From positions 9,213-73,212 of the forward strand of contig CAZKWE010000092.1 of assembly GCA_964556545.1 (NCBI GenBank): a stretch of DNA of 64,000 bases, given 5' to 3'. Below the pieces are notes generated by a model. It did no database searches. It saw nothing but the letters and a program-made list of their open reading frames with translations, and was not told where the DNA came from. Source of the DNA: an uncultured Campylobacteraceae bacterium (GTDB lineage: Bacteria; Campylobacterota; Campylobacteria; Campylobacterales; JALSKU01). This document shows positions 21,831-35,945 of the stretch, piece after piece. Both the position numbers and the translations under genes were made by a program. How positions within the stretch are numbered: the stretch's first letter is position 1; each line of letters starts with the position of its first letter.

Positions 21831-23213
21831 ATGATGACAAAAAAAGATATAGAATTTTTCCAAAATATTGTCGGCAAAGAAAATATATACAATGACAAAG
21901 CTCACCTATTGGCATATTCGTATGATGCAACAAAAAACAGATACGAGCCTGATGCTGTTATATTTCCCAGAAACGAAGATGATGTAAGCAGGATATTAAA
22001 ATACTGCAATGAAAATAAAATCATCATAATTCCAAGAGGTGCAGGAAGCGGTTTTACAGGCGGGGCATTGCCCGTAAACGGTGGCATAATGCTTGCTTTT
22101 GAAAAACATATGAATAAAATCATAGAAATTGATATGCAAAATATGGTTGCTATAGTCCAACCGGGGGTTATAAACAGAGATTTGCAAAATGCGGTTGAAG
22201 AGATAGGACTTTTTTATCCGCCTGATCCGGCCAGTCAAGATTATTCTACTATCGGCGGAAATGTAAGTGAAAATGCCGGAGGTATGAGAGCTGCAAAGTA
22301 TGGCATAACAAAAGACTTTGTAATGGCATTAAGAGCAGTTTTACCAAACGGAGAAATCATAAGAGCCGGTAAAAAGACGATAAAAGATGTAGCAGGATAC
22401 AATATAGCCGGTATTCTTATTGCCAGCGAAGGAACTTTGGCAGTTATAACCGAAATTACTTTAAAACTTTTAGCAAAACCGTCCAAAACAAAAACTGCTA
22501 TGGGAGTTTTTGAAAGTGTCAAAGATGCTATGAATGCGGTTTTCAAAACAATGGCAAGCGGTGTCACTCCTGTTGCTATGGAGTTTTTGGACAATCTGAG
22601 CATAAGAGCCGTAGAAGAAAAATTCCACAAAGGCTTACCGGTTGATGCCGGAGCCATACTTATATGCGATGTTGATGGCAATCTTGATATAGAACTTGAT
22701 ACACAACTTCAAAAGATAGAACATGGTTTCAAAGAAAACGGTTGTAAAAACTTTGTTATAGCAAAAGACAAAGAGGAAGCAAATGATCTTTGGTTTTCAA
22801 GAAGAAATGCCAGCCAAAGCATTACCATATACGGAAGTAAAAAACTAAATGAAGATATAACGGTACCCAGATCCAGATTGCCGGAGCTTTTAGAGGGTAT
22901 TAGCAAAATAGCAGAAAAATATGATATAAAAATACCCTGTTTCGGACATACGGGAGACGGCAATGTACATGTAAATGTAATGGTTGATGCAAACGACAAA
23001 GACGAACTCCAAAAAGGTTATGAAGCTATTGTTGAAGTTTTTAAACTCGCAGTGGATCTTGAAGGAACTTTAAGCGGTGAACACGGTATAGGCCTTAGCA
23101 AGGCTCCGTTTATGGATATGGCCTTCAGTAAAGCAGAAATGGAACTTTTCAAGTCCGTTAAAAAAGCTTTTGATCCGAACAATATATTAAATCCGGGTAA
23201 AATGGGACTTTGA
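21831..23213 (+). CDS. glcD: FAD-binding oxidoreductase, glycolate oxidase subunit GlcD family
   Basis: 460 aa. PCMH-type FAD-binding motif PRGAGSGFTGGA, C-terminal GEHGIG. Confidence 0.8.
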   Translation: MMTKKDIEFFQNIVGKENIYNDKAHLLAYSYDATKNRYEPDAVIFPRNEDDVSRILKYCNENKIIIIPRGAGSGFTGGALPVNGGIMLAFEKHMNKIIEIDMQNMVAIVQPGVINRDLQNAVEEIGLFYPPDPASQDYSTIGGNVSENAGGMRAAKYGITKDFVMALRAVLPNGEIIRAGKKTIKDVAGYNIAGILIASEGTLAVITEITLKLLAKPSKTKTAMGVFESVKDAMNAVFKTMASGVTPVAMEFLDNLSIRAVEEKFHKGLPVDAGAILICDVDGNLDIELDTQLQKIEHGFKENGCKNFVIAKDKEEANDLWFSRRNASQSITIYGSKKLNEDITVPRSRLPELLEGISKIAEKYDIKIPCFGHTGDGNVHVNVMVDANDKDELQKGYEAIVEVFKLAVDLEGTLSGEHGIGLSKAPFMDMAFSKAEMELFKSVKKAFDPNNILNPGKMGL

Positions 23214-24058
23214 AAACAAAAAAAGAAAAAATACAGTTTTATATCAAAGAATTTAGAGATAAAGATTTGTTGCATTATGCTTCAAGCCTAAGTTTTCATA
23301 CTATATTGGCACTTATTCCCGTGCTTCTTATATCACTTTCAATCTTTACAAAACTTCCGAGTTTCAACAAATACTATGAGCTTATAAAAAATTTTATTTT
23401 TTCATCTTTGATGCCAAGCCAGCAAGAGACTATATCGAACTACATAGATAAATTTTTAAACAATACCCTAAATATGGGAATAATGGGTTTTATATTTGTA
23501 ATATATGTTTCGATTATGTTTTTTATGGATTATGAGTATATAGTCAGTAAAATTTTCAAGACAAAACCAAAAACCTTTTGGCAAAGTATCTCTACATACT
23601 GGACACTTGTAACATTGCTTCCAATGGGTATAGGAGTATCATTTTTTATCTCAAGCAAAATACAGCATATATTAAACTCTTACCAATATACAAGCTGGAT
23701 AAACATACTTGTTATACTTCCTTTTCTTATCTTTTGGATGCTCTTTTTTATAATGTATATGATATCCATAAATATCAAGGTTGATACAAAAATAGTCCTG
23801 TTTTCATCTTTTCTGGCTTCTTCTATTTGGTATATATCAAAAACTGTTTTTATCTATTATGTCAGCTATAATAAAACCTATACAAGCATATACGGTTCAT
23901 TTAGCACGATAATGTTCTTTTTTATATGGATATATTTTTCCTGGGTTATTTATATATACGGTTTAAAGATATGCTACCTTCTAAACAGAGCAAACAATAC
24001 CCACTCTTTAGAAACCAATACCACAACGGCAAATAAAAATACTAACTACCCGGATTAA
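23210..24058 (+). CDS. YihY/BrkB family inner membrane protein
   Basis: 282 aa, N-terminal YASSLSFHTILALIPVLL motif of the YihY family, about 6 TM. TTG start overlapping the glcD stop. Confidence 0.7.
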   Translation: MKTKKEKIQFYIKEFRDKDLLHYASSLSFHTILALIPVLLISLSIFTKLPSFNKYYELIKNFIFSSLMPSQQETISNYIDKFLNNTLNMGIMGFIFVIYVSIMFFMDYEYIVSKIFKTKPKTFWQSISTYWTLVTLLPMGIGVSFFISSKIQHILNSYQYTSWINILVILPFLIFWMLFFIMYMISINIKVDTKIVLFSSFLASSIWYISKTVFIYYVSYNKTYTSIYGSFSTIMFFFIWIYFSWVIYIYGLKICYLLNRANNTHSLETNTTTANKNTNYPD

Positions 24059-24549
24059 AATCCAAGCAATTTTTTTCTTATTTTAGGGTTTGTAAGATTT
24101 TCTCCTCTTAACATTCTCAATCTCATTTCATCAAAAGGTATCAACTTCTTTTTTGTACTGTTTTTTTCATATGCTCCGAAACCATAATGCATCGGAGTAC
24201 TGTCGGTCATTGTATAATGAGCTTTTTTCGCATCTATCCATTTATGGGTATCATCACTATATGTCCAAAGTTTTACATCTTTCGGGTCATATTTGTTTTT
24301 ATGAAGCCAAAGTATCATACAACCAGGATCATCAAACACAAAAGCTCTGCCATCTTTTAGTATAACTTCACTTGAATGATCCATTTTTTCCACTTCCATG
24401 CCACATTGCGGATCCATTGTAACTCCAAGCTTTACCGGTACCGGTTTTCCGTCTTTGCTTTTTAGAGTTGCCACTTCTCTTTTTTCACAGCCGCTAAACA
24501 ATAACAAAATAAATATCGCAAATATAATACTTTTTTTCATCACAGCCAT
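24055..24549 (-). CDS. NosL-family lipoprotein, paralog of the nosL at 29792-30274
   Basis: 164 aa, lipobox LFSGC. Shares DPQCGM / FVFDDPGCMILWL / KWIDAKKAHYT / PMHYGFGAY with nosL (CQRCDM / YLFDDIGCAVLWM / KWIDARKALYT / PMAYGIAAF). Confidence 0.65.
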   Translation of the reverse strand: MAVMKKSIIFAIFILLLFSGCEKREVATLKSKDGKPVPVKLGVTMDPQCGMEVEKMDHSSEVILKDGRAFVFDDPGCMILWLHKNKYDPKDVKLWTYSDDTHKWIDAKKAHYTMTDSTPMHYGFGAYEKNSTKKKLIPFDEMRLRMLRGENLTNPKIRKKLLGF

Positions 24550-25502
24550 ACTCCATTTTTTAAATGATAAATTACGGGATAAGCAGATACTATAATAACA
24601 TAAACAGTATCAAAAATCAAAGAAATCTTTCCAAAATTACTCTTTTTTATCCCGGCAAGCAAGATAATATATCGTGCAATTGCACTGAAAGTTCCTATAA
24701 AAAGAGTGGTATATAAAACATATCCTATATAGTGATAATCACTTTGCAGCATACAAAACGGGCAATGATGAGTAGGCAGTTCATATATGTAAGTTCCGAA
24801 AAACGATATAAGTGAAATGATGGAAGTTGCTACAAATAAAATATTTGCCAAAGCATAATATACGGAATTTTTCAGTCTGTAAGCAAAAAGAATAAGTATA
24901 AAATTTATATAAAAAAGCGAAACCAAAAGAGTATTTGGCAAAGAGAGTATAGAAGCGATAGTTGATTTTCCCGCAGCTGAAAATACGGTTCCGCAGCAAC
25001 TGACTATTCTTGCCGGATCGAGTGAAAAAAATTCCATAACCTCCAGCACAATCTCACTCATCAAAAAAATATATATTATAACAAAAAAGATAAATTTTAT
25101 CTTTGTATAAGGCATTTTTTCATTTTCCAAATCAACCTTGTTTAGCACCAGCCAGGAACTAAACAGATATAAATTTATAATTTTTATTATCATGGCATAA
25201 AAACCATATGTTGTAGAATTTACTACACCGACTGCACACATAGCTCCCGGTATATAAACCGATAACTTATCCTGTACATATATAAAGTACAAAAAAAGAG
25301 GCAATTTTATAAAAAGTATATATTTTATGATTGTCGCTACAAGATAACTCTGTTTTTCAAGTCTGTACTGTGTAGTTGTTGTTTTTGTGATATCCCATTT
25401 TAAAATTATCTTTATACTTAAAAAAAATGCAATTGTTCCGAAAAAAGCAAAAATACCGTCAAGTATCAAAATCACAAGAACATCAGGTGTCAACAAATTC
25501 AC
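24540..25502 (-). CDS. polytopic membrane protein with conserved-looking Cys/His motifs, unknown function
   Basis: 320 aa, about 8 hydrophobic segments. Motifs GAMCAVG, VSCCG, THHCPFCM. 4-nt overlap with the upstream ABC ATPase gene, 10-nt overlap with the downstream NosL paralog. Confidence 0.6.
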   Translation of the reverse strand: MNLLTPDVLVILILDGIFAFFGTIAFFLSIKIILKWDITKTTTTQYRLEKQSYLVATIIKYILFIKLPLFLYFIYVQDKLSVYIPGAMCAVGVVNSTTYGFYAMIIKIINLYLFSSWLVLNKVDLENEKMPYTKIKFIFFVIIYIFLMSEIVLEVMEFFSLDPARIVSCCGTVFSAAGKSTIASILSLPNTLLVSLFYINFILILFAYRLKNSVYYALANILFVATSIISLISFFGTYIYELPTHHCPFCMLQSDYHYIGYVLYTTLFIGTFSAIARYIILLAGIKKSNFGKISLIFDTVYVIIVSAYPVIYHLKNGVWL

Positions 25503-26167
25503 TTCATTACGCCTTTTACTATTTCTATTTCCCTGTCAGTAATATCAAGATTAAAAAATATAGGATCATGTGTAGCAATAACAATTGTTTTTTTATCATT
25601 TTTTAACTCTTTTAAAAATGATAAAAAATCTTGTGAAAGTTTTGCATCAAGATTGGCTGTGGGCTCATCTGCAAGTATAATCTTCGGATCATTTACCAAA
25701 GCTCTGGCAATTGCCACTCTTTGCTGTTCTCCCCCTGATAGATTTTTAGCCAAATCATTTTTTTTGTGATAAATTGAAAATTTTTTCATACTAAGCTCTG
25801 CTTTGGTATCAATTTCCTCTTTTGTAAATCCTGAAGGAATAAGAGGCAAGATAACATTTTCATATACACTAAGTGTTGGTATAAGATTGAATTTTTGAAA
25901 AATAAAACCTATATTTTCCCGTCTATACATAGAAGCAAAATTATCAGGAAGCTTTGCTATCTTTTTGCCATCAACTTCCACATCACCGCTGGTTGGCTTT
26001 AAAAGTGCGGCCAAAATTGACAAAAGTGTACTTTTCCCGCTGCCGCTTGGCCCTTTTAAAAGAACCAATTCTTTTGATTTTACCTGAAATGTTATATTTT
26101 GCAAAGCTACCGTTTCATTTGGCTTGCCTTGATTGAAAATTTTATAAATTTTATCAACTTTTATCAT
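25499..26167 (-). CDS. ABC transporter ATP-binding protein (MacB/LolD-like)
   Basis: 222 aa. Walker A GPSGSGKST, signature LSGGEQQR, Walker B ILADEPT, and the FIFQ.FNL motif typical of the MacB/LolD class. Confidence 0.85.
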   Translation of the reverse strand: MIKVDKIYKIFNQGKPNETVALQNITFQVKSKELVLLKGPSGSGKSTLLSILAALLKPTSGDVEVDGKKIAKLPDNFASMYRRENIGFIFQKFNLIPTLSVYENVILPLIPSGFTKEEIDTKAELSMKKFSIYHKKNDLAKNLSGGEQQRVAIARALVNDPKIILADEPTANLDAKLSQDFLSFLKELKNDKKTIVIATHDPIFFNLDITDREIEIVKGVMK

Positions 26168-27354
26168 CTTATTACCTCGTCAGCTTCCAATGTCGCCGCA
26201 AACCATGAAGGTATGATAGTTGCCGCTATATAAAGTGGCACTGTGGCAAAAAATATAAGCGTTACAGTTCCGAAGTCGAAACTAAAAGGAAGTTCAAAAG
26301 GAGGCTTGAGTATAGAATAACCGGTAAATATATCTCTTAAAACAGGAGCATTTAAAAAATATACATAAAACATACCAAAAGTCAATGCACTGAAAAATGC
26401 AACAAATGAAATGATAAAAGCTTCATAAAATTTTTGCAAAAGTATATCTCCTATCTTCCATCCAACTGCTTTTTGAACACCTATTTCTCGTTTTTCATCA
26501 CTGCTTAATCCGCTTGTTTTATCATATATAATGATAAAAAATGTAAAAAGAGCTATGATAAAAAGTGCCAAAAAAACTCCACTCTTATAATCAAATATAT
26601 TGTTATATGAAATTCTAAGATCATTTTTTGTAATAACTCTGAAATTCGGATACATCAATCGTATCTTTGTGGCTATCTCATTAACTTCTTTTGGATTTGG
26701 TACTCTTATGGTTATATCGGTAGCTTTATCTTCACTCATTCCAAATATTTCTCTTGCATTCTCATTGCTCAACAAAATGATATCATTTGATTCTAAAAGA
26801 GTGCTTCCTTTAAAAACTCCTGCTAAATATATCTTTTTAAAATCTCCGTTTGGTTTTATAAAATTAAAGTATTTATCATAATAATTTTTTTCAAGTATCT
26901 TTTTTACACCCTCGCCTACTATCATGGTATTTGGTTTATCAAAAATCGTTTTATCATATTTGTCAACAACATTTTGTATGCTTTTTTTATAGTTTGTATC
27001 AAATCTGCTAACACCTACTACCGAAAAATTGGCACCTGCATTTTTAAAGTAGTAGTATCCCCAAACTCTTGGAGAAACCTGTGAAACACCCTCAATAGTT
27101 GATAACTTTTCAACAACATCCAAACTAATATCCTGCTCTCTTCCGGCACTAAGTTTTTGTATGGTAATATCAGGTAAAGAATCAACCGTATAGGATAACT
27201 CTTTTTTTATGGAGTTGGATATAAAAAAGATAGATGATAGTAAAAATATCAGTATAAAAAAAATGATAAATATAAATATATTTTTACTTCCTCTTCTTTT
27301 TATAGCACTTAGTGCATATTCAAAAAGCAAAAGATTAAATAATTTCATTTGCAT
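26164..27354 (-). CDS. ABC transporter permease, FtsX/MacB type
   Basis: 396 aa. TM1, a roughly 230-aa periplasmic domain, then 3 C-terminal TMs with KREIGVQKAVGW (FtsX-domain motif). Confidence 0.8.
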   Translation of the reverse strand: MQMKLFNLLLFEYALSAIKRRGSKNIFIFIIFFILIFLLSSIFFISNSIKKELSYTVDSLPDITIQKLSAGREQDISLDVVEKLSTIEGVSQVSPRVWGYYYFKNAGANFSVVGVSRFDTNYKKSIQNVVDKYDKTIFDKPNTMIVGEGVKKILEKNYYDKYFNFIKPNGDFKKIYLAGVFKGSTLLESNDIILLSNENAREIFGMSEDKATDITIRVPNPKEVNEIATKIRLMYPNFRVITKNDLRISYNNIFDYKSGVFLALFIIALFTFFIIIYDKTSGLSSDEKREIGVQKAVGWKIGDILLQKFYEAFIISFVAFFSALTFGMFYVYFLNAPVLRDIFTGYSILKPPFELPFSFDFGTVTLIFFATVPLYIAATIIPSWFAATLEADEVIR

Positions 27355-27650
27355 ATAACCTTTGATGGGGTTTTTAAAAGTATTGTCGAGGGAGCATAAA
27401 CATAGGTTGTTACAAAGTAGCTAACTCCTTCGGGGTCTTCGCTAAATATGGAAAACAGATCGCTCAAACTTCTATGCCTTATGTATTTGGCTTCAGTAGA
27501 TATAGACAAATCAGGAAGTCCGATATATTTAACAAATATCTGTTTTTGAGATATGTTTTTACTCTTAAGTGTTAAAAACAAAACTTCAAATGTAAAAAAA
27601 AGAGCAATTGCTGTAAAAATAAGAGAAAAAATCTTTAAATTTTTACTCAT
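27345..27650 (-). CDS. small membrane-anchored periplasmic protein, unknown function
   Basis: 101 aa, single N-terminal TM. ATGA overlap with the upstream NosL-like gene and 10-nt overlap with the FtsX permease gene. Confidence 0.5.
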   Translation of the reverse strand: MSKNLKIFSLIFTAIALFFTFEVLFLTLKSKNISQKQIFVKYIGLPDLSISTEAKYIRHRSLSDLFSIFSEDPEGVSYFVTTYVYAPSTILLKTPSKVICK

Positions 27651-28363
27651 TTTTTTTGCTCATCAAGCGACCAGACAAGATCATCATTTAACTCATCAAA
27701 TCTTTTTATAAATTTTCCGAAATGATCTTTTTTAAAATTTTCAGCCTCTTTGAGTGTTTTAAAAGGTATAAGCTCATTCCCCATAGGTCCTAAAACATTA
27801 CTCCAAAACACATAATATGCTTTTTTGGCATTTATACCCTTTTGAGTATAATAATCAGTTACAATTATTTTGGTAATACTTTTTCTAAATTTTTTTATAT
27901 CATATTTGCCATAGTCATCCGGATTGAAGTAAAATTTCATCATATCCTTTACACCGTCAAAACTAAAATGATGAATTTTGCCATCTTTTTTAAAATAAAT
28001 CTGAGCCGCCCATCTTGGATACTTGTAAACAAGCATTCCGCAAACCGGACATTTTTCTCCTTTGTGGACAACTACTTTACCAAATTCTTTCGGTTTACCT
28101 GCTCTTTTGATATCCCAAAGATACAATGATACCGCCAACAACTGTTTTTTGGACAACCTTTTGCAAAGCTTTTTCTCTTTTATAGCTTTTTTGAGCATCT
28201 TGATATCTTCATAGTTTTTAACATTTATTGGTTTGCAAACTTTTTGATATATCTTTTTACCCATAGGATAATAAATAATCTTTTTTTGTGCATCTGTTAT
28301 AGCAAAAAGAGAGCCAAACAATATCAATAATACAAGAATCTTTTTCATATTTTTCCCCAACAA
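27647..28363 (-). CDS. NosL-family periplasmic protein with N-terminal extension
   Basis: 238 aa, signal peptide. Canonical NosL metal motif GEKCPVCGM, then YVFWSNVLGPMGNELIPF. About 80 aa of extra N-terminal sequence. Confidence 0.7.
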   Translation of the reverse strand: MLGKNMKKILVLLILFGSLFAITDAQKKIIYYPMGKKIYQKVCKPINVKNYEDIKMLKKAIKEKKLCKRLSKKQLLAVSLYLWDIKRAGKPKEFGKVVVHKGEKCPVCGMLVYKYPRWAAQIYFKKDGKIHHFSFDGVKDMMKFYFNPDDYGKYDIKKFRKSITKIIVTDYYTQKGINAKKAYYVFWSNVLGPMGNELIPFKTLKEAENFKKDHFGKFIKRFDELNDDLVWSLDEQKK

Positions 28364-28436
28364 TATAATATATCAATATAGCAAAAAAGTGTTAAGTGTT
28401 TGTTAAAAAATGTTTATGATATATTTAAAAAATCAA

Positions 28437-28913
28437 TTACAGCATATCAAGATACTTAATCAATCCTTTTGAAATTCTTGAAAAAGGTAAAACCTTTGTT
28501 CCTCCGTATTTTACTTCAAACATTTTAAGAGTTGTTCTATCGCTAAAAGGTACCAAATCATCACCCTTCGGGCCTATTAGTCTGCTACCAAAAACATAAA
28601 GAGCTTTTTTTGCATCTATTACTTTACCTGTTATATAATCCTGCACGACCATTTTTTTTATGTCTTTGGTAGTTTTTGCACCGTATTCGGTATAATACCA
28701 CGGTCTATAGTAAAAATCCATCATACTTTTAACAGAACTAAAGTATGCCTTTTTACCATTTTTCAACTCAATCATACAGACTAAATTTCCATATTTGTTT
28801 ACATTCCAATTAAACAATGGATCAAGTGCATTTTTGGGAACTTTCAATTCTCCTGCACTAAGTCCTGAAACCAAAAATCCAAAAAACAAAATGCTTAATA
28901 TAACTTTTTTCAT
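28437..28913 (-). CDS. NosL-like periplasmic protein lacking the CxxCGM motif
   Basis: 158 aa, signal peptide. Aligns by eye with the 238-aa paralog (SVKSMMDFYYRP vs GVKDMMKFYFNP; YVFGSRLIGPKGDDLVPF vs YVFWSNVLGPMGNELIPF), but has LVCM in place of CPVCGM and PKG in place of PMG. Confidence 0.6.
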   Translation of the reverse strand: MKKVILSILFFGFLVSGLSAGELKVPKNALDPLFNWNVNKYGNLVCMIELKNGKKAYFSSVKSMMDFYYRPWYYTEYGAKTTKDIKKMVVQDYITGKVIDAKKALYVFGSRLIGPKGDDLVPFSDRTTLKMFEVKYGGTKVLPFSRISKGLIKYLDML

Positions 28914-28961: not shown

Positions 28962-29789
28962 TTACAATATATCTTTTTTCTTAAATGAAATAAATCCAAA
29001 AAGAGCAAACAAAGCACCTATTATAACCGGATATGTTACTGCATAGGCTATAAAAGCCGTATGTCCGAAATTATCAAGCAAATAGTAAGCTACCGGGCCT
29101 ATAACGGTAAGTTCGGGGTCAAATAGGCTTATAGCTCCTACTCTAAATACTTCCATCGGATTTAAAAGCGAGATAGATATGATAAGATTATCCGAAATCC
29201 TGTCTTGAAGCATCAATCCTATAAGAGCTACATCTATAAAAGCCAGCATTACTATCCACACCACAAATGATGCCCCTATGGCCACATCATGTGATTTTAC
29301 AATAGATGATATAAAAAAAGCAATTCCGAGAAATGAAAATGAAAGTCCGAACAGTAAAGCCGAATACAGCATTAACATATTGTAAGGCAATGCTCCGCCT
29401 TTAAAAATTCCCCAAACAACCCCAAGAAATAAAGCGATAACAACAGGTAAAAAAACCGTTAAAAATCTGCCGAGCATTTTACCCCAATAATAATCTTTTA
29501 ACGATATGGGAAATGACAACATATACTCAAGTATATTACTCTCCTTATCACCTGCAATGGATTTGACGGTAGTAGTAAGTATAAAGATAGGAAGTATGAT
29601 TATAGTTACTTGCATATATATAAGAAGTATCCTGCTAAGTCCGCTAAATCCCATAACAACAGCATTTGTAATACCTGTTATAAAAAATAAAGCCATCAGT
29701 CCGCCAAAAACTATACTATATATAAAAAACCATTTTGATTTTATAGACTCTTTTATATCAAGCTTTGCTACTAACAATAAATTTTTCAC
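28962..29789 (-). CDS. nosY: nitrous oxide reductase maturation ABC-2 type permease NosY
   Basis: 275 aa, 6 TM, ABC-2 permease topology. Located in the nos cluster after nosF and nosL. Confidence 0.75.
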   Translation of the reverse strand: MKNLLLVAKLDIKESIKSKWFFIYSIVFGGLMALFFITGITNAVVMGFSGLSRILLIYMQVTIIILPIFILTTTVKSIAGDKESNILEYMLSFPISLKDYYWGKMLGRFLTVFLPVVIALFLGVVWGIFKGGALPYNMLMLYSALLFGLSFSFLGIAFFISSIVKSHDVAIGASFVVWIVMLAFIDVALIGLMLQDRISDNLIISISLLNPMEVFRVGAISLFDPELTVIGPVAYYLLDNFGHTAFIAYAVTYPVIIGALFALFGFISFKKKDIL

Positions 29790-29791
29790 CG

Positions 29792-30274
29792 TTATTTTCC
29801 CTTTTGTATTTTTTGCTGATTGAAATCTTCAACTTTATGTATAATCTTTTCAGCCTCTTTTAAAGTCAAAGGCTTTTCTCCTTTTGGCAATGTCTTTTTT
29901 GTAAAAGCGGCTATACCATAGGCCATAGGAGTTATCATATCATCTGTATATAAGGCTTTTCTTGCATCTATCCATTTTCCGGTTTTAGCATCTGTTATCC
30001 AGATAACAGCTTTATCCTTCCATGGTATTTTATTTTCATCCATCCACAAAACCGCACAACCTATATCATCAAAAAGATAATGCTTGCCTGTTTTGGGATT
30101 TACCACTTGTACTGCATATTTTCTCTCGCTGATAGCCATGTCACATCTTTGGCATATATCTCTATCCCAATGCATTTTTTGCGGTTTTAAATCTATCTTT
30201 TTATCGCACCCCGTAAGACCACCCATAAACAATAAAGACAAAAATACAAATATATACTTCTTCATTTGCATCAT
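29792..30274 (-). CDS. nosL: nitrous oxide reductase accessory lipoprotein NosL
   Basis: 160 aa, lipobox LTGC, CQRCDM motif. Position is directly after nosF, with a 1-nt gap. Confidence 0.7.
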   Translation of the reverse strand: MMQMKKYIFVFLSLLFMGGLTGCDKKIDLKPQKMHWDRDICQRCDMAISERKYAVQVVNPKTGKHYLFDDIGCAVLWMDENKIPWKDKAVIWITDAKTGKWIDARKALYTDDMITPMAYGIAAFTKKTLPKGEKPLTLKEAEKIIHKVEDFNQQKIQKGK

Positions 30275-30275
30275 C

Positions 30276-30923
30276 TTAAGATTCTATCTTTTTATCTTCC
30301 GTAACTTTTCCAATATCAAGATATACAAGTCTGTTTGTAAGTCCTTTTAAATCTTCCAAACGATGAGTTACGTAGATAACCGAACTTTTTTTATCAAGCT
30401 TTGTTAAAAGTTTGGCAAAATTTTCCCTGCCTTTAGGATCAAGATTGGCAGTTGGCTCATCAAATATATAAAGTTCACTTTTTCTTGCCAGTGCAATCGC
30501 AATAAGCAGTTTTTGCTTCATTCCGCCAGAGAGTTTGAAAAACGGCTTTTTCATATTTTTTACAATATCCAATTCCATATCAACAGCTTCTTGCACAATC
30601 TTCTCTTTTGATACTTCTGAAGTTGTACATATATAGCCTATAAGATCCTCAACACTTATCTTTATGGGAGGAGGAAGTTGAGGGATAAAACTTATCTTTT
30701 TCAAGATATCCACTCTCTGCTTTACGGGATCTTTCCCGTCAACTTCTATACTGCCCTGATTTAATTTATAATACCCCAAAATTGCCCTTATAAGAGTTGT
30801 TTTACCGGCACCGTTGGGACCAAGCATTGCTATCTTGTCACCCTCCTTGATACTTAGGGTTATATTATCAAGGACATTAACTTCACCAAAATTTTTAATC
30901 ACATTTTTTATATCTATGGTCAT
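30276..30923 (-). CDS. nosF: nitrous oxide reductase maturation ABC ATPase NosF
   Basis: 215 aa. Walker A GPNGAGKTT, signature LSGGMKQK, Walker B YIFDEPT. 4-nt overlap with nosH. Confidence 0.8.
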   Translation of the reverse strand: MTIDIKNVIKNFGEVNVLDNITLSIKEGDKIAMLGPNGAGKTTLIRAILGYYKLNQGSIEVDGKDPVKQRVDILKKISFIPQLPPPIKISVEDLIGYICTTSEVSKEKIVQEAVDMELDIVKNMKKPFFKLSGGMKQKLLIAIALARKSELYIFDEPTANLDPKGRENFAKLLTKLDKKSSVIYVTHRLEDLKGLTNRLVYLDIGKVTEDKKIES

Positions 30924-31831
30924 ACGAGATTCTTTAACCTAAATTGAAAGTTGTAGGCATCAGTATGGCACACATCAAAACATCTACCGCACATTATACA
31001 ATCACCGTTTACGACCATCTGTTTTGTTATACCCTTTTCTCGTCTTTCTCTGTCATGTTTTGGTTTTGTAAATTCTAACACATGCTCTTCCGGACAAACT
31101 TGCAGACATGCACCACAGTGATCGCATTTGTCATTATCCCATTGAACTTTTGTCGCGCTGACCCAACCTACAAGGTTGTATGTTGTTCCTACCGGACAAA
31201 TGTATTTACACCATGCTCTTCTTGAAACAAAAATTTCAAACAAAAGGATAACCACAACCCAAACGATTGCAAGGCTCCACCCGTAAACGATAAATCTGCT
31301 AAGTATTCCTATGGGATTTATGACTTCAAAAACAAGGTATCCGTCAATTGCCGCAGCTATAAGAAATACTGCCCAAAAGAAAAATCTAACTCTCGGATCA
31401 AATTTTCTCTCTTTAATAATTTTTTTTCTGACGAGCATCAAATGAATATGTTCTCCAATTTCACTTAAAAATCCATACGGACACACCCAGCCACAGTATG
31501 CTTTACCGCCGACTAATAGATAAAAAACCAACAGTGTACTGGTACCTATAATGACATTGGTATGAACATGGTGTTCTGCAGCAAATATTTCAAGCCCTGT
31601 AAAAAGGTCTATCAGGTGAAAACCCAAAAGTCTTGAACCGTTTAGTGTTCCCTCAAGTACTTGTACATCAGCATTGAACGATAGAAAAAAGAAAAGATTT
31701 ATGATAATGACACTAAGCCATCTCCAAGCTCTCCATGTAAGCCTTGTTTTGCCGTTTTTATTTTTTTCTATCAAAGTTGAAAGCAAGGAAGCTCTTACAA
31801 GCTCCCTTCCACTATCATGATATCTATCCAT
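30920..31831 (-). CDS. nosH: NapH-like membrane-bound iron-sulfur protein NosH
   Basis: 303 aa. TM helices with CxxxCP-type motifs (CGWVCPYG, CKYICPVG) and C-terminal ferredoxin clusters (CDHCGACLQVCP, CIMCGRCFDVC), as in NapH/NosH. Confidence 0.8.
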   Translation of the reverse strand: MDRYHDSGRELVRASLLSTLIEKNKNGKTRLTWRAWRWLSVIIINLFFFLSFNADVQVLEGTLNGSRLLGFHLIDLFTGLEIFAAEHHVHTNVIIGTSTLLVFYLLVGGKAYCGWVCPYGFLSEIGEHIHLMLVRKKIIKERKFDPRVRFFFWAVFLIAAAIDGYLVFEVINPIGILSRFIVYGWSLAIVWVVVILLFEIFVSRRAWCKYICPVGTTYNLVGWVSATKVQWDNDKCDHCGACLQVCPEEHVLEFTKPKHDRERREKGITKQMVVNGDCIMCGRCFDVCHTDAYNFQFRLKNLV

Positions 31832-31842
31832 AGGTTTTACCT

Positions 31843-32379
31843 TTATTGATTATTGTATTTATCCCATTTCTCTTTAAAAGTCGAAATTTCAGTAGCTAAT
31901 TTATCCAATGTTGCATCATCCATTTTTTGTAAAAGTCCATACATAACATAATTTCTTCTTTTACCTGTTTTAAAGTCATGTAATTGTTTTAAAATAAATT
32001 CTTTGGACTTACCCACAAGATTCGGTCCTATAATACCCCTGCCGTTTACACCATGACAAGAAGAACAATTTTGTTTATAAAGTCTACTTACTTTAAATGC
32101 CGCAATATTGCCTGCTTTATTTTTTAAAGCTTGAAGTTTTTTATCTAACTCTTTATTTTTGTTTTCCAACTGTTTTTTGGCTTCTGCAGCATTATCCACA
32201 CTGTTTTGCACCTCTTTTTTTGCAACTACAGGTTTGTTAAGATGCACCTTTATCTCAGAAGATTTTATAATCCTGTGAATAGTTTGAAGCTTGTGAACTT
32301 GCTTGTCAAGTGAATACATATAATATGAAGCCCATAAAGCCAATATTGTTGCAATCGCCGCTATGATATGTTTTATCAT
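31843..32379 (-). CDS. nosC2: monohaem cytochrome c NosC2
   Basis: 178 aa, N-terminal membrane anchor, single CSSCH haem-binding motif. Its position matches the Wolinella-type nosC1-nosC2 pair. Confidence 0.7.
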   Translation of the reverse strand: MIKHIIAAIATILALWASYYMYSLDKQVHKLQTIHRIIKSSEIKVHLNKPVVAKKEVQNSVDNAAEAKKQLENKNKELDKKLQALKNKAGNIAAFKVSRLYKQNCSSCHGVNGRGIIGPNLVGKSKEFILKQLHDFKTGKRRNYVMYGLLQKMDDATLDKLATEISTFKEKWDKYNNQ

Positions 32380-32975
32380 TTTCCATTCCTTAATTTTAGT
32401 AATTTTGCATTGAAGTCAGCTATCTCATTAGCGATAGCTTTTAGTTTTGCATCATCCATTTGTGATACAAGACCTTTCATAAGTACATTTTTTCTTTTGC
32501 CGGATTTAAAGTCCATCAATCTGCCATATACAAAATCCCCGCTCTTTCCAAGCAAGGACGGCCCTATGATACCGTTACCGTAATCATCATGACAGGCAGA
32601 GCAGTGAACTATAAAATCATGGCTTAATTTATTTACCATAAGATTTATCTTTATCCTTTCATAAGGAGATCTGACATGCAAATATGCATCTATGGTCGTT
32701 CTTTGCTGTTTAGTATCTTCTTGATACTTTTCAATTGCCTTAGCCTCTTTTGATTTATCCTCTTCATTATAAGAGTAGTAATATTGACCTCCGTTTTGTT
32801 TTGAAATCTCTTTTGATTTATCCTCTTTTTTAACTGCATTTTTAGTAACTTTAATACCCGAGATATTGGTTACTACTTGATGATTGTCGGCTTTTTCTTC
32901 TTTCTTTTTTTCTCCGCATCCGCTTAAAAATACAATACTTGCCAAAGATAAAGCAATTAATCCTGTCTTATGCAT
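32376..32975 (-). CDS. nosC1: monohaem cytochrome c lipoprotein NosC1
   Basis: CSACH haem motif. Start moved to ATG 32975 (MHKTGLIALSLASIVFLSGC, lipobox), overlapping the nosG stop by 8 nt. Track start 33032 would overlap nosG by 65 nt. Confidence 0.7.
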   Translation of the reverse strand: MHKTGLIALSLASIVFLSGCGEKKKEEKADNHQVVTNISGIKVTKNAVKKEDKSKEISKQNGGQYYYSYNEEDKSKEAKAIEKYQEDTKQQRTTIDAYLHVRSPYERIKINLMVNKLSHDFIVHCSACHDDYGNGIIGPSLLGKSGDFVYGRLMDFKSGKRKNVLMKGLVSQMDDAKLKAIANEIADFNAKLLKLRNGK

Positions 32976-33759
32976 TTTTGCTCTCCCCGTATATTTGTTT
33001 ATATGTAGCTCTTGGTACGATTTCAAGCACATTGGTAGGACAAAGCTCTACACAAGCTCCACACCCGACACATGCTTCTCTTATTTGAGGTAATTTGCCG
33101 GTTTTATGATCGACCATACCTATAGCTAAAGAAGGATCCGGTATAAAAGGACACATGTCTGCACATATCGTACACTCCTCTCCTTCAAATTTTTCAAGTT
33201 TTTTAAGTACCTTTTTTTGAAGTACATATTTTTCAGGATCATTTGGATTGTCTATAACCTTTTTATTTTCTCTCTCCTCTTTGGTGAGAATTTTGGTATG
33301 ATCGTAAATTCTGTCTATTGCACTTCTTGGAACTTTTTCATTTTTTTGTGCAAGACAGGCATTTGGTCTTTTAACTATGGCTACACCCATATGAACTTTA
33401 TCTATACTGTCACTTTCATGATCAAGAGCACCTGTAGGACATGCCAATATACAAGGAAATGCTTTGCATAGGTAGCAACCTCTATCCCTGGGAATGATAA
33501 ATGCAGTTCCCAAGCCGGCTTTTCCTTCCACATCTTCAAGTTTTATACAGTCATAAGGACAAACCTGCAGACACTGTCCGCACTTGATACAAAGAGATAG
33601 ATAGTTTTTCTCCGGAACCGCTCCCGGAGGTCTTAATCTCTTCTCTTTTGGCTTAAAATCAGGTGCTACGGCAATTCCGCCGGCAGCAACAACTCCAAGT
33701 ATTCCCAGGCTTGTAGCCTTTTTTATAAAATCTCTTCTTTTCTTTTCTTCTGGTGTCAT
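32968..33759 (-). CDS. nosG: NapG-like periplasmic polyferredoxin NosG
   Basis: 263 aa. Twin-arginine signal (KKRRDFIKKATSLG) and four CxxCxxCxxxCP-type clusters. Confidence 0.8.
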   Translation of the reverse strand: MTPEEKKRRDFIKKATSLGILGVVAAGGIAVAPDFKPKEKRLRPPGAVPEKNYLSLCIKCGQCLQVCPYDCIKLEDVEGKAGLGTAFIIPRDRGCYLCKAFPCILACPTGALDHESDSIDKVHMGVAIVKRPNACLAQKNEKVPRSAIDRIYDHTKILTKEERENKKVIDNPNDPEKYVLQKKVLKKLEKFEGEECTICADMCPFIPDPSLAIGMVDHKTGKLPQIREACVGCGACVELCPTNVLEIVPRATYKQIYGESKNA

Positions 33760-35003
33760 AGTATTTTACTCTCTTCCATAATAGGGTGTTTATCTTCCAA
33801 CAATTTAACCGGCTCGGATATAGGAGCCAATTTTGCTATAAAGTTCAGTATGGATATTACCGGAGATCCATAAAAAAACCTTATATTTGGATTTAAAAGC
33901 CAAACTTTATCCGCATACTGATAGTATATATAAGGATTATCCCCTATACCATCACCATTTTTGTCAAAACCTTCATAATCATCCCAATAGTTTCCATCCC
34001 ATAAATTTTGAGTTACTTTTCTATTGAAAGAATCATTTACAATATTATCCATGTTGCCTTTTATTATATTTTTTTTAAATATATTAGCGATACTCAAAGA
34101 GTGGAACTTTACCGCAATAGAATTATACAACAATCTGTTATTTTCTATATAGTTATGTGTTCCGGGCTCAAAAGGTGACCTGTCTATAAAAAATCCTCTT
34201 GAACAATATATAATAGTATTATCTTTTATAGTAAAATTCGAACTGTCTTTCAATCCTATCCCAAGTCCTGTGGTTCCCATAGAATTTTCTATCAGATTTC
34301 CGTATGCTTCACTGTCTTTGGAATACATAAAGTAAATCCCTACGGAGTTATGCTTATAAACATTATCTTTTACTATATTTTTACCCGCATACATAAAATG
34401 TAAAGAGTATCTTCCGTATTCGCCTCTGTTTTTTTCTATCAAATTCCCATGACTGTACCAAACGACAAAATCTCTTGATTTGTACAGATAATTGCCTCTT
34501 AAGATATTGTCATTACTGTACCAAAGTCTTACTCCGTCTCCTCTAAGTCCAAGAGAAAACTTTTTGGAAGTAATATAATTATCCAATATCCTGGAATTGC
34601 TTACCATTTGAAGGTCGATTCCAAACAGACAATCCAATATTCGATTGTTTTTAATCAAAACATTTCTTATCAAAGTATCGTTTGAGCCATGTGCATTTTT
34701 AACCGATATGCCGGCATCTACTCTTTCATGCTCCTTTCCGCTGTGCCTTATTGTTAAATTTTCAATAGTCACATTTGAGCTTTTTATAGATATAACAGTA
34801 CCTTTCCCGTCACCTTCTATTATTGCTTTTTGATTCTTTCCGTCAATAATTATAGGTTTGTTTATAACTATATTACCCTTGTATATACCTGCCGGCAATT
34901 CAAGTTTTGAACCTGGCTTTGCATTATTTATAGCTTCTTGCAATACATTTTTTGCCAATAATTCAAGTGACAACAACATAAGAGCAATAACTATATTTTT
35001 CAA
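33756..35003 (-). CDS. nosD: nitrous oxide reductase maturation protein NosD
   Basis: 415 aa, signal peptide, repeated parallel beta-helix (PbH1/CASH) units. Lies between nosB and nosG. Confidence 0.8.
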   Translation of the reverse strand: MKNIVIALMLLSLELLAKNVLQEAINNAKPGSKLELPAGIYKGNIVINKPIIIDGKNQKAIIEGDGKGTVISIKSSNVTIENLTIRHSGKEHERVDAGISVKNAHGSNDTLIRNVLIKNNRILDCLFGIDLQMVSNSRILDNYITSKKFSLGLRGDGVRLWYSNDNILRGNYLYKSRDFVVWYSHGNLIEKNRGEYGRYSLHFMYAGKNIVKDNVYKHNSVGIYFMYSKDSEAYGNLIENSMGTTGLGIGLKDSSNFTIKDNTIIYCSRGFFIDRSPFEPGTHNYIENNRLLYNSIAVKFHSLSIANIFKKNIIKGNMDNIVNDSFNRKVTQNLWDGNYWDDYEGFDKNGDGIGDNPYIYYQYADKVWLLNPNIRFFYGSPVISILNFIAKLAPISEPVKLLEDKHPIMEESKIL

Positions 35004-35004
35004 T

Positions 35005-35808
35005 TTATGCCTCTTGTTTTTCAGCTTTGATTCTTGATATTATAGCCAACAGTGAAAGAAGGCTTATACCTATAAGCACCCAAAAACCCCATGTAGGATA
35101 TGAATGTGTTGTAAACTGGGCAACTTTACCATCACCAAAAACCGTAGGAGTAAACGGTTTTATTTTAAAGGCTCCCCATGCATGCATATGATGACCGAAC
35201 CAATAAAGCCAATATGCATAAAATCCCAAAAATATAACTGGCAATGCAACAGGTATAAACATCAGTATGTTCAATATCTTGCTATCATAAAGTATAAAAT
35301 ATACCAAAAGCAGTGATAAAAATACCAAAGCATAAGGAGCTATCATTCTAAGATAAGGTGCTCCTCTTTTCATAGGATCCATACCTATAAAGTGATTGAT
35401 AGTATTCATCTCATGAACATCTCCGCTAAATCCGTCAAAATGATAATATACGGGAATTCCCTCGGGAAATGCCTCTTTAGGATAGTTTGGAGCTTCAAGT
35501 GCAACATACCATATAGGAGCTGTTACTACATTCAACTCTGCATCATTTTTTATCATGTTCATCAAATGAACTTCACCTGTTTTCTTAAGGTCCTCTTTTA
35601 CTGCATCAGGTGCATTGGGACTTACATATCTTCCTTTTTGGTAAAAATTCCATGTTTTTGCCATCATAGGTGTTATCTTATTTACTTGGTCAGTTTCAAC
35701 CAAGTCTTGAATATTGTGTGTCAAAACTGCTGGTATAACAAACCAATACAGCAACATACCAAGAGCGATAAGTGCAAAAATCCTTGATTTGAGAAGGGTT
35801 TTGTTCAT
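35005..35808 (-). CDS. nosB: membrane protein NosB
   Basis: Polytopic membrane protein directly downstream of nosZ, as in the Wolinella-type cluster. Start set to ATG 35808 (MNKTLLKSRIF, preceded by AAGGAAAC), because track start 35847 lies upstream of the transcription start inferred from the FNR-type promoter. Confidence 0.65.
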   Translation of the reverse strand: MNKTLLKSRIFALIALGMLLYWFVIPAVLTHNIQDLVETDQVNKITPMMAKTWNFYQKGRYVSPNAPDAVKEDLKKTGEVHLMNMIKNDAELNVVTAPIWYVALEAPNYPKEAFPEGIPVYYHFDGFSGDVHEMNTINHFIGMDPMKRGAPYLRMIAPYALVFLSLLLVYFILYDSKILNILMFIPVALPVIFLGFYAYWLYWFGHHMHAWGAFKIKPFTPTVFGDGKVAQFTTHSYPTWGFWVLIGISLLSLLAIISRIKAEKQEA

Positions 35809-35865
35809 CTTAGTTTCCTTTATAAAATTTGAAAAGTATTCTATCATAATATTATTTATTCTTTA

Positions 35866-35879
35866 TTGATATTCATCAA
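35866..35879 (-). promoter_or_regulatory. CRP/FNR-family box TTGATATTCATCAA upstream of nosB
   Basis: Perfect TTGAT-N4-ATCAA. A -10-like TAGAAT (35843-35838, minus strand) lies 29.5 bp from the box centre, which is class II geometry. Confidence 0.65.
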
Positions 35880-35913
35880 GTCATAAAAGTGTATATTTAA
35901 GTAAATTATAAGA

Positions 35914-35940
35914 TTACACTCCGCAGTCTGCGGAGTGTAA
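35914..35940 (-). terminator. strong hairpin immediately after nosZ stop
   Basis: ttacactccgcag-t-ctgcggagtgtaa, 13-nt perfectly complementary arms 5 nt after the nosZ stop, followed on the minus strand by a T-rich stretch. Confidence 0.6.
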
Positions 35941-35945
35941 TTATT

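Follow-up and report, generated by a model that had tools for sequence, protein, structure and literature searches.

A copper-delivery machinery of nitrous oxide (N2O) reductase, formed by NosDFY and NosL, was reportedly described by Müller et al. in Nature in 2022, and a structure of NosL is given in PMC8457098. The reductase (NosZ) is, to our knowledge, the only biological sink of N2O and requires twelve Cu(I) per dimer, and we know of no settled source of the copper received by NosL, notably in sulfidic water with its copper locked as sulfide. A second described system is FetMP-FetABCDEF of Campylobacter jejuni, with its relatives FetMP-Fls of Salmonella and Escherichia coli and Fet-Flp of Yersinia (PMC10783030, PMC7285068). 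FetABCDEF contains a cysteine-rich protein with eight transmembrane (TM) helices, two permease-like subunits (FetBC), an ATPase (FetD) and two thioredoxins (PMC10783030). The periplasmic metal-binding FetP/P19 is also present in the Fet cluster, in which the ATP-binding cassette (ABC) unit and FetA are required and are of unknown function (PMC10783030, PMC7285068). The present analysis deals with a gene for a cysteine-bearing membrane protein of 320 amino acids, and with the gene module around it, in a 64,000-nucleotide stretch of contig CAZKWE010000092.1 from an uncultured Campylobacteraceae bacterium (the window).

The 320-residue protein was found to be a membrane protein of an undescribed family without a relative of known structure or function. 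The conserved, unannotated module to which its gene belongs was found in nos operons of Campylobacterota and free-standing in at least three further lineages of anaerobes. The module is proposed as a concrete candidate for a step that is missing from the known copper pathways of anaerobes, the supply of copper to NosL-type chaperones or its removal from them.

An undescribed membrane protein family

More than 4,500 homologues of the protein were found at E<=1e-3 in a collection of 5.8 billion sequences, and the family profile was found to match 981 clusters at 50% identity in a library of 1.84 billion representatives. Where the source gives any name, the homologues are always called 'hypothetical' or 'possible membrane protein'. 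The Campylobacterota members belong to Sulfurimonas, Sulfurovum, Sulfurospirillum, Arcobacteraceae and Hydrogenimonas, and the Desulfobulbales members to Desulfocastanea catecholica, Desulforhopalus and Desulfopila, followed by the presence of further members in Geobacteraceae, Thermodesulfobacteriota and Nitrospirota, including Thermodesulfovibrionales. Cultured carriers of the family are available, among them Sulfurimonas sp. CS5 (locus L055) and Desulfocastanea catecholica (WP_459946040.1).

The original prediction, made from the letters of the window alone, could not place the protein in a family by eye, and the searches agreed with it. The protein was found to match nothing in Pfam-A at E<=0.1 other than a sub-threshold TMEM171, nothing in NCBIfam, and nothing among PDB sequences by a single-sequence phmmer search or by a profile search. 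Ten distant family members searched against curated families (Pfam at E<=1) gave nothing relevant, and CopD/PcoD, MerT, YeeE/YedE (Sulf_transp) and DUF2318/YHS were absent from the Pfam scans of the protein and of these ten members. The FtsX and MacB_PCD models of Pfam were not matched by the protein and were both matched by the neighbouring gene product at 26164-27354, and the protein is therefore taken as an accessory membrane protein and not as a canonical permease. A tblastn search of plasmid sequences with the protein gave zero matches, and no description of the family or of the module was found when a body of 8 million full-text papers was searched for work on NosL and Campylobacterota nos clusters.

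Conservation was followed in two sets, 130 representatives at 50% identity and a lineage-enriched sample of 653 non-identical members from several phyla. On the predicted periplasmic side, the residues G86, A87, M88, C89, G92, C169, C170, Y238, Y240, P243, H245, C247, P248, F249 and G260 were found to be invariant or nearly so, followed by the presence of a (near-)invariant polar cluster of W36, Q45, E49, D124 and K136 on the cytoplasmic side. Loss of the Cys and His positions among orthologues had been named beforehand as the outcome that would speak against the original prediction; C89, C169, C170, H245 and C247 were found to be (near-)invariant in the 653 members. The three Cys-bearing loops were better conserved than the helices, and the cytoplasmic half was found to contain no conserved Cys, His or Met among the family members. 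The gene is real and strongly constrained, as the number of homologues, the number of matching clusters and the invariant Cys, Met and His residues indicate.

Residue 250 was found to be variable. It is Cys in 83% of the 130 representatives, Asp in 20 and Asn in 1 (Asp/Asn 16%). Among the 653 sampled members, 236 (36%) carry Asp or Asn at this position, in whole clades and with no compensating Cys. Members of the CPFD type contain four core cysteines and members of the CPFC type contain five. Since C250 is replaceable by Asp or Asn, the family signature is GAMC / CC / PxHxCPF[C/D/N] and not CxxC, to which the original prediction had pointed. The protein of the window carries the full signature, G-A-M-C...G, C-C and P-x-H-x-C-P-F-[C/D/N].

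The open reading frame (ORF) of the prediction, for which no strand had been given, was found on the minus strand with a GTG start, which is credible since the same start position was found in all orthologues. The motifs GAMCAVG, SCCG and HHCPFC were present where they had been placed, together with the adjacent His pair (H245-H246). Six cysteines had been counted, five of them in the two clusters, whereas the translation contains five (89, 169, 170, 247 and 250) and the two clusters hold four. Both predicted overlaps were also found. The start of the gene shares 4 nucleotides (GTGA) with the stop of the gene for the ABC ATPase (25499-26167), and its 3' end shares 10 nucleotides with the next NosL paralog, if that is taken as its longest ORF (24055-24549). 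The latter overlap shrinks to 1 nucleotide if the paralog uses its second ATG (MKKSIIF...). The family is present as a single copy within the window.

About eight hydrophobic segments had been expected, and eight long helices were given by AlphaFold2, at residues 6-35, 43-80, 100-126, 133-160, 190-209, 213-240, 259-282 and 290-316, with three structured loops at 81-99, 161-189 and 241-258. The model, built from a 55-sequence alignment of two phyla, has a predicted local distance difference test (pLDDT) value of 90.2 and a predicted template modelling (pTM) value of 0.87. A Foldseek search of the model against 350,542 PDB chains gave a best E value of 0.45 and TM scores of at most 0.32, all noise from G protein-coupled receptors and helical bundles and no oxidoreductase, and an earlier model (pLDDT 79.5) was equally without a real neighbour in the PDB. 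An internal duplication of four plus four TM helices was rejected, since the N- and C-terminal halves matched each other in hhalign with a probability of 0.3%.

In the 130 representatives, the short loops with their flanks were found to contain a mean of 13.0 Lys plus Arg per 78 residues and the Cys loops with the termini 4.2 per 113. By the positive-inside rule, this bias points to a periplasmic location of both termini and of all three Cys loops, and we infer a topology with the Cys motifs in periplasm-side loops outside the TM helices, in place of the intramembrane CxxC that the original prediction had assumed. The residues W36, Q45, E49, D124 and K136 (~25095-25397, minus strand) lie at those ends of TM1 to TM4 that are predicted to face the cytoplasm, and this cluster could serve as an ATPase docking site, as an ion or proton path, or as a CopA-like carboxylate entry site.

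Covariation was followed by gap-filtered mean-field direct coupling analysis (DCA) with an effective number of sequences (Meff) of ~305. The residues flanking the motifs were found to be coupled (A90-P163, A90-S187, I84-I166 and D162-M251), followed by the coupling of K66 to T172 and L252 and of P68 and Y61 to T244. A clean antiparallel TM1-TM4 register in the same list served as an internal control. The couplings suggest that the three Cys loops pack together into one cap or site.

The module and its genomic context

The module of the window was found to contain, in this order and with tight overlaps, the genes of a NosL-domain protein, a 101-amino-acid protein, an FtsX/MacB_PCD permease, the ABC ATPase, the 320-residue protein and a NosL lipoprotein. 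The gene of the 320-residue protein is the last of the core genes. The context of the family was examined at 80 genome loci of Campylobacterota and at 80 metagenome loci of the deepest branches, which have 25-30% identity to the window protein, and each count takes only the loci at which the relevant region was visible.

At the Campylobacterota loci, the ATPase gene was found directly upstream of the membrane protein gene in 73/74 cases, and the array contained the FtsX permease gene in 63/70 and the small TM protein gene in 54/68. A NosL-domain gene was nearby at 66/80 loci, and in many of them it was downstream of the membrane protein gene. Among the loci with full flanks, 16/28 contained nos genes within 8-10 kb. 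The nos-linked arrangements vary, being co-linear in the window, convergent in Sulfurimonas, and inserted between nosL and nosY in two Sulfurospirillaceae loci (L035 and L065), which contain the five-gene module and a NosL gene at this place. The adjacency of the module genes outlasts rearrangement. Foreign genes split the FtsX gene from the ATPase gene in L055 and others, and the pair of the ATPase and the membrane protein gene was always intact. The gap between the FtsX and ATPase genes was found to contain ~1.4 to 4.5 kb of unrelated DNA in L055, L012, L029, L036, L077, L079 and L080. The insert L055:7609-9332 of Sulfurimonas sp. CS5 (NZ_CP180409.1) contains ORFs of 238 and 335 amino acids, the second of which looks RhuM-like by eye.

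At the metagenome loci, an array of NosL (one to four copies), small protein, FtsX, ATPase and the membrane protein was found to be universal, with the ATPase gene directly upstream at 56/56 loci, FtsX present at 39/39 and the small protein present at 38/39. The ATPase gene was thus directly upstream at 129/130 visible loci overall. A SCO1/SenC gene was directly downstream of the membrane protein gene in 6 loci and nearby in 5 more, and the other neighbours were mixed, with YtkA-like genes, AhpC/TSA-type redoxins, and CusA- and CusB-type genes. In one homologue of 557 amino acids (P0389, compared with P0157 and P0388), the gene of the family was read through into the adjoining SCO1/SenC gene, which indicates that the two genes abut. 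A true Sco fusion was rejected in this case; a frameshift is probable, and the C-terminal helix was found to be replaced by out-of-frame sequence. Metagenome loci such as L091, L092 and L104 contain an array of two to four NosL genes ahead of the module. The first gene of the four-NosL array of L091 (L091:2727-4055) was found to encode a 442-amino-acid fusion of NosL with an outer-membrane channel of the Phenol_MetA_deg type, and this fusion hints at a possible copper capture at the outer membrane.

The Desulfobulbales array contained a TlpA-like redoxin, NosL, the small protein, FtsX, the ATPase and the membrane protein, without nos genes. The module of the Geobacteraceae locus adjoins a TlpA-like redoxin and a CusA/CusB pair, of which CusB contains HMBD and YHS domains, and the Nitrospirota locus contained the module with two NosL genes. 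All lineages examined have NosL domains beside the module. The coupling to the ABC ATPase and to NosL, claimed from the window, was found to be very strong across loci. The module is not specific for N2O respiration, as it was found with no nos genes around it in Desulfobulbales, Geobacteraceae and Nitrospirota and on many contigs from metagenomes.

In the window, all genes from 38549 down to 24055 share the minus strand, and neighbours overlap or are separated by short gaps (Table 1). The array contains four NosL-domain ORFs (24055-24549, 27647-28363, 28437-28913 and 29792-30274), two of them with lipoboxes (LTGC and FSGC). Three of the four paralogs were found to keep Cys-x-Met ligands (CQRCDM, CPVCGM and QCGM), and the paralog at 28437-28913 has lost them. 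The same three keep the equivalents of Cys62 and Met64, the Cu ligands of NosL of S. denitrificans (PMC8457098). The likely true start of the NosL protein at 27647-28363 is ATG 28348 rather than TTG 28363. This protein contains a ~70-amino-acid N-terminal domain (residues ~25-95) with two conserved Cys (YPMGKKIYxKxC...LCK...LYLW), which looks like a cytochrome-c-like segment without CxxCH, and the same domain joins two NosL domains in Sulfurimonas homologues (L055:4930-6027).

The small protein was found to contain the motif GL(P/S)DL(A/S)xSTEAxYxRH, which is kept across phyla from Campylobacterota to Desulfobulbales. One His of the small protein is conserved, and its gene is always between NosL and FtsX. 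The top NCBIfam models of the ATPase were FtsE and LolD, both under the cut-off. The conservation map of the periplasmic domain of the permease gave no conserved Cys or His and just one Met (M144). A Lol-like release of lipoproteins by the ABC unit was rejected, as the LolCE model gave 42 bits against a cut-off of 362, and it is also disfavoured by the NosL partners, which are not consistently lipoproteins. A gene for a BrkB/YihY-family membrane protein (23210-24058, plus strand) converges on the array with a 4-nucleotide overlap with the NosL stop, and no link of it to the module was seen at other loci.

The nos cluster upstream of the module was found to contain, in order, cNosZ (35946-38549), NosB, NosD, NosG, NosC1, NosC2, NosH, NosF (30276-30923), a NosL lipoprotein (29792-30274) and NosY (28962-29789). 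The nosL gene thus sits between the ATPase and permease genes (nosF-nosL-nosY, 28962-30923, minus strand). The cNosZ contains propeller, cupredoxin and cytochrome c domains. NosB and NosC1 had no Pfam match and NosC2 matched a generic cytochrome c, and these labels were given by position and size. The cluster is taken to be of clade II by its likeness to Campylobacterota nos clusters (cNosZ with C-terminal cytochrome c; NosB/G/C1/C2/H).

Table 1. Coordinates of the features of the membrane protein gene, the module and the nos cluster in the window
Feature	Position	Strand	Basis
ORF of the membrane protein, 320 amino acids, GTG start	24540-25502	minus	translation
GAMCAVG, residues 86-92, TM2-TM3 loop (predicted)	25227-25247	minus	sequence and AlphaFold2
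VSCCG, residues 167-171, vicinal pair C169-C170, long TM4-TM5 loop (predicted)	24990-25004	minus	
PTHHCPFC, residues 243-250, TM6-TM7 loop (predicted)	24753-24776	minus	
ABC ATPase, FtsE/LolD/MacB type	25499-26167	minus	Pfam ABC_tran 2e-37
MacB/FtsX-type permease, periplasmic core domain	26164-27354	minus	Pfam FtsX and MacB_PCD
Small 101-amino-acid protein, one N-terminal hydrophobic helix	27345-27650	minus	no Pfam family
NosL-domain protein, signal peptide, CPVCGM (CxxCxM), first in module	27647-28363	minus	Pfam NosL 1e-30
NosL lipoprotein, lipobox FSGC, ligand motif QCGM, last in array	24055-24549	minus	Pfam
NosL-domain ORF with signal peptide, without CxxCxM ligands	28437-28913	minus	Pfam
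Upstream nos cluster, cNosZ to NosY	28962-38549	minus	Pfam per ORF
Promoter-like TTAACA-17-TATATT with TG, in the 73-nucleotide gap before the module	28367-28395	minus	consensus match only
Terminator-like hairpin and T run, end of last NosL gene	24044-24071	minus	consensus match only

Readings of the function

Copper is the best-supported theme for the membrane protein because NosL, Sco, YtkA, TlpA-like and CusAB proteins are its neighbours, and in this the original prediction found support. NosL is the one constant partner of the module with a known function, and it also occurs outside nos clusters (PMC8457098). As the periplasmic domain of the permease holds no conserved Cys or His, the candidate metal chemistry falls to the NosL proteins and to the membrane protein, which appears from its sequence to carry the only obvious soft-ligand cluster in the module besides NosL. 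The location of the Cys loops on the side low in Lys and Arg would have this site face the compartment of NosL, Sco and NosZ. Met, Cys and His are the classic set of Cu(I) ligands, and metals are known to be handed over by vicinal Cys pairs in MerT, MerA and Cox17. The alternation of Cys, Asp and Asn at position 250 is more in keeping with a ligand than with a redox couple that needs both Cys of a CxxC.

The protein is therefore read here, tentatively and a little short of probable, as a periplasm-facing Cu(I)-thiolate acceptor and donor site that would swap copper with NosL-type chaperones with power from the ABC unit. The machine would be made of the products of five to six genes, the NosL-type chaperone(s), the small TM protein, the MacB/FtsX permease, the ABC ATPase and the membrane protein. 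Met88/Cys89, Cys169/Cys170 and His245/Cys247, with Cys or Asp 250, would form one soft-ligand site on the outward face of the membrane. This site would trade Cu(I) with the CxxCxM sites of the NosL paralogs through an exchange of ligands. The ABC unit of type VII (MacB-like) would convert ATP hydrolysis by mechanical transmission into a directional hand-over, as NosFY would for NosD and NosL. In the window, the module would have been recruited to the nos operon and would feed the copper line from NosL through NosDFY to NosZ, and in other phyla it would serve partners of the Sco, YtkA or TlpA type or adjoin CusAB.

Several points weigh against a copper site of this kind. No nos gene was found within 8-10 kb in 12/28 of the Campylobacterota loci with full flanks, so that the link of the module to N2O reduction is facultative. 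Asp is atypical as a Cu(I) ligand, the DCA contacts that link the motifs are of low rank and modest score, and the cluster of W36, Q45, E49, D124 and K136 is left unexplained by the proposed mechanism. Thioredoxin-fold neighbours (TlpA-like and Sco) suit a redox role equally well, and the four or five periplasmic Cys could merely form structural disulfides. The absence of conserved Cys, His and Met from the cytoplasmic half makes a full transmembrane Cu(I) relay not evident and lends no support to the membrane conduit suggested in the original prediction. Copper could flow for supply or for detoxification, as the Sco and nos neighbours point to one and CusAB to the other.

A stronger version of the copper reading, possible but doubtful, would make the protein a membrane Cu(I) translocator or relay of a new class and a new fold, powered by the MacB-type ABC unit and loading NosL, Sco or YtkA chaperones. 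The source of the copper could be the cytoplasm, the outer leaflet or the sulfide-bound pools of anoxic, sulfidic habitats. The data do not bear on a passage of copper through the protein to the other side of the membrane. If true, this version would give a route of cuproenzyme biogenesis parallel to the P1B-ATPases and would answer where NosL gets its copper.

Outside the copper readings, a thiol-disulfide relay is a serious rival, though judged unlikely. In such an analogue of CcdA/DsbD or of DsbB/VKOR, C169-C170, and C247 with C250 or C89, would reduce or re-oxidise the cysteines of NosL, Sco or TlpA-like proteins. The CPFC motif and the second Cys pair on the predicted periplasmic side would suit it, as would the recurrence of thioredoxin-fold neighbours (TlpA-like proteins in Desulfobulbales and in Geobacteraceae, and Sco proteins at many of the metagenome loci), and a relay of reducing power was proposed by the authors for FetABCDEF of C. 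jejuni (PMC10783030). The CxxC couple is nevertheless dispensable, given the frequency of Asp and Asn at position 250, which weakens a reading of the DsbB/VKOR type in particular. Disulfide exchange would also give no role to the invariant Met88 and His245, and none of the conserved Cys is predicted within reach of the cytoplasm, unlike in CcdA/DsbD. DsbD_TM, DsbB and VKOR were not matched in Pfam, their solved structures were not matched in Foldseek, and no evidence for a quinone site was found.

The strictest conserved feature of the gene is its adjacency to, and its 4-nucleotide overlap with, the ATPase gene, and this would be expected of a structural or regulatory subunit. Such a subunit would hold FtsX, the ATPase and the small protein together as a scaffold or stator, its Cys would only staple the periplasmic loops through disulfides, and it would handle neither metal nor electrons. 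The polar cluster at the cytoplasmic face could dock the nucleotide-binding domain of the ATPase, and the four core Cys of the CPFD-type members could make two disulfides. This role is considered quite improbable in view of the odd number of Cys (five) in the CPFC-type members, of the invariant Met and His that adjoin the Cys, and of the three loops that are more conserved than the helices. The carriers are moreover mostly strict anaerobes of sulfidic habitats, in which structural disulfides of the periplasm are uncommon.

Least probable among the roles weighed, and improbable in itself, is another thiophilic cargo, namely sulfide or persulfide for the [4Cu:2S] centre CuZ, Zn(II) for the heterometal site of NosL, or haem. 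The gene lies inside a nos operon in the window, the carriers come from sulfidic settings, and the sulfur of the CuZ centre of NosZ has no known origin. One ABC unit of type VII, HrtBA, extracts haem, and the HxCPF of the family resembles the Cys-Pro haem-regulatory motif. NosL was found to bind Zn besides Cu (PMC8457098). On the other side, the module is common without nos genes, so that a sulfur role specific for CuZ cannot be general, and haem-handling neighbours (CcsBA, Hrt regulators) do not recur. YeeE/YedE was not matched in Pfam, and Foldseek against solved structures (YeeE included if in the library) was empty. The recurrent partners NosL, Sco, YtkA and CusAB are copper proteins. The binding of an Fe-S cluster, for which Cys/Asp interchange is known, was rejected on account of the predicted periplasmic location of the Cys loops.

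Comparison with known systems

The P1B-type Cu(I) ATPases supply Cu(I) in an ATP-dependent manner to periplasmic chaperones (Sco, PCuAC) and contain a CPC motif in a TM helix. These ATPases, CopA and CcoI among them, share with the membrane protein a Cys-Pro membrane motif together with Met and Tyr. The membrane protein differs from them in its entire architecture, having no P-type domains, a motif in a predicted loop, a separate ABC ATPase and no similarity in Foldseek.

The proteins CcdA/DsbD, DsbB and VKOR are polytopic as the membrane protein is, with Cys pairs that include Cys-x-x-Cys and with thioredoxin-fold partners or neighbours. They were found to differ from it in that no hidden Markov model or structural match was obtained, the CxxC of the membrane protein is replaceable, and its Met and His are invariant. 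All of its Cys are predicted on one side of the membrane and in loops. The two conserved Cys of CcdA/DsbD are in TM helices and are reached in turn from the cytoplasm and from the periplasm.

In MerT/MerP, in the C-terminal pair of MerA and in the CCxC of Cox17, a vicinal Cys-Cys takes a thiophilic metal from a soluble chaperone through an exchange of ligands. The pair of MerT is near the periplasmic face of a membrane protein, which agrees with the predicted topology of the membrane protein of the window. MerT contains three TM helices, and its import path is completed by another Cys pair on the cytoplasmic side, whereas the membrane protein contains eight predicted TM helices and no conserved cytoplasmic Cys, and no sequence or fold relationship to MerT, MerA or Cox17 was found.

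In NosDFY-NosL, as in the module, the Cu(I) chaperone NosL is coupled to an ABC unit, with periplasmic mechanotransmission as the probable function and not transport, and both systems share one operon-like array in the window. The ABC unit of the module is of type VII (FtsX/MacB_PCD with an FtsE/LolD-like ATPase), whereas NosFY is of the ABC-2 type. The module is without the beta-helix protein NosD, it adds the Cys-rich eight-TM protein and the small TM protein, which are absent from NosDFY, and unlike NosDFY-NosL it also occurs without nos genes.

By published descriptions, the Fet system resembles the module in combining a periplasmic metal-binding protein, a Cys-bearing eight-TM protein and an ABC unit. 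The chaperone is NosL in the module and P19 in the Fet system, and FetA carries DUF2318 and YHS, neither of which was matched by the membrane protein in Pfam. After FetABCDEF, the module is a second case in which ABC units and Cys-rich eight-TM proteins come together with periplasmic proteins that bind metal. The combination of a chaperone with an ABC mechanotransducer is already known from NosDFYL and has a parallel in FetABCDEF; the eight-TM protein without known relatives is new.

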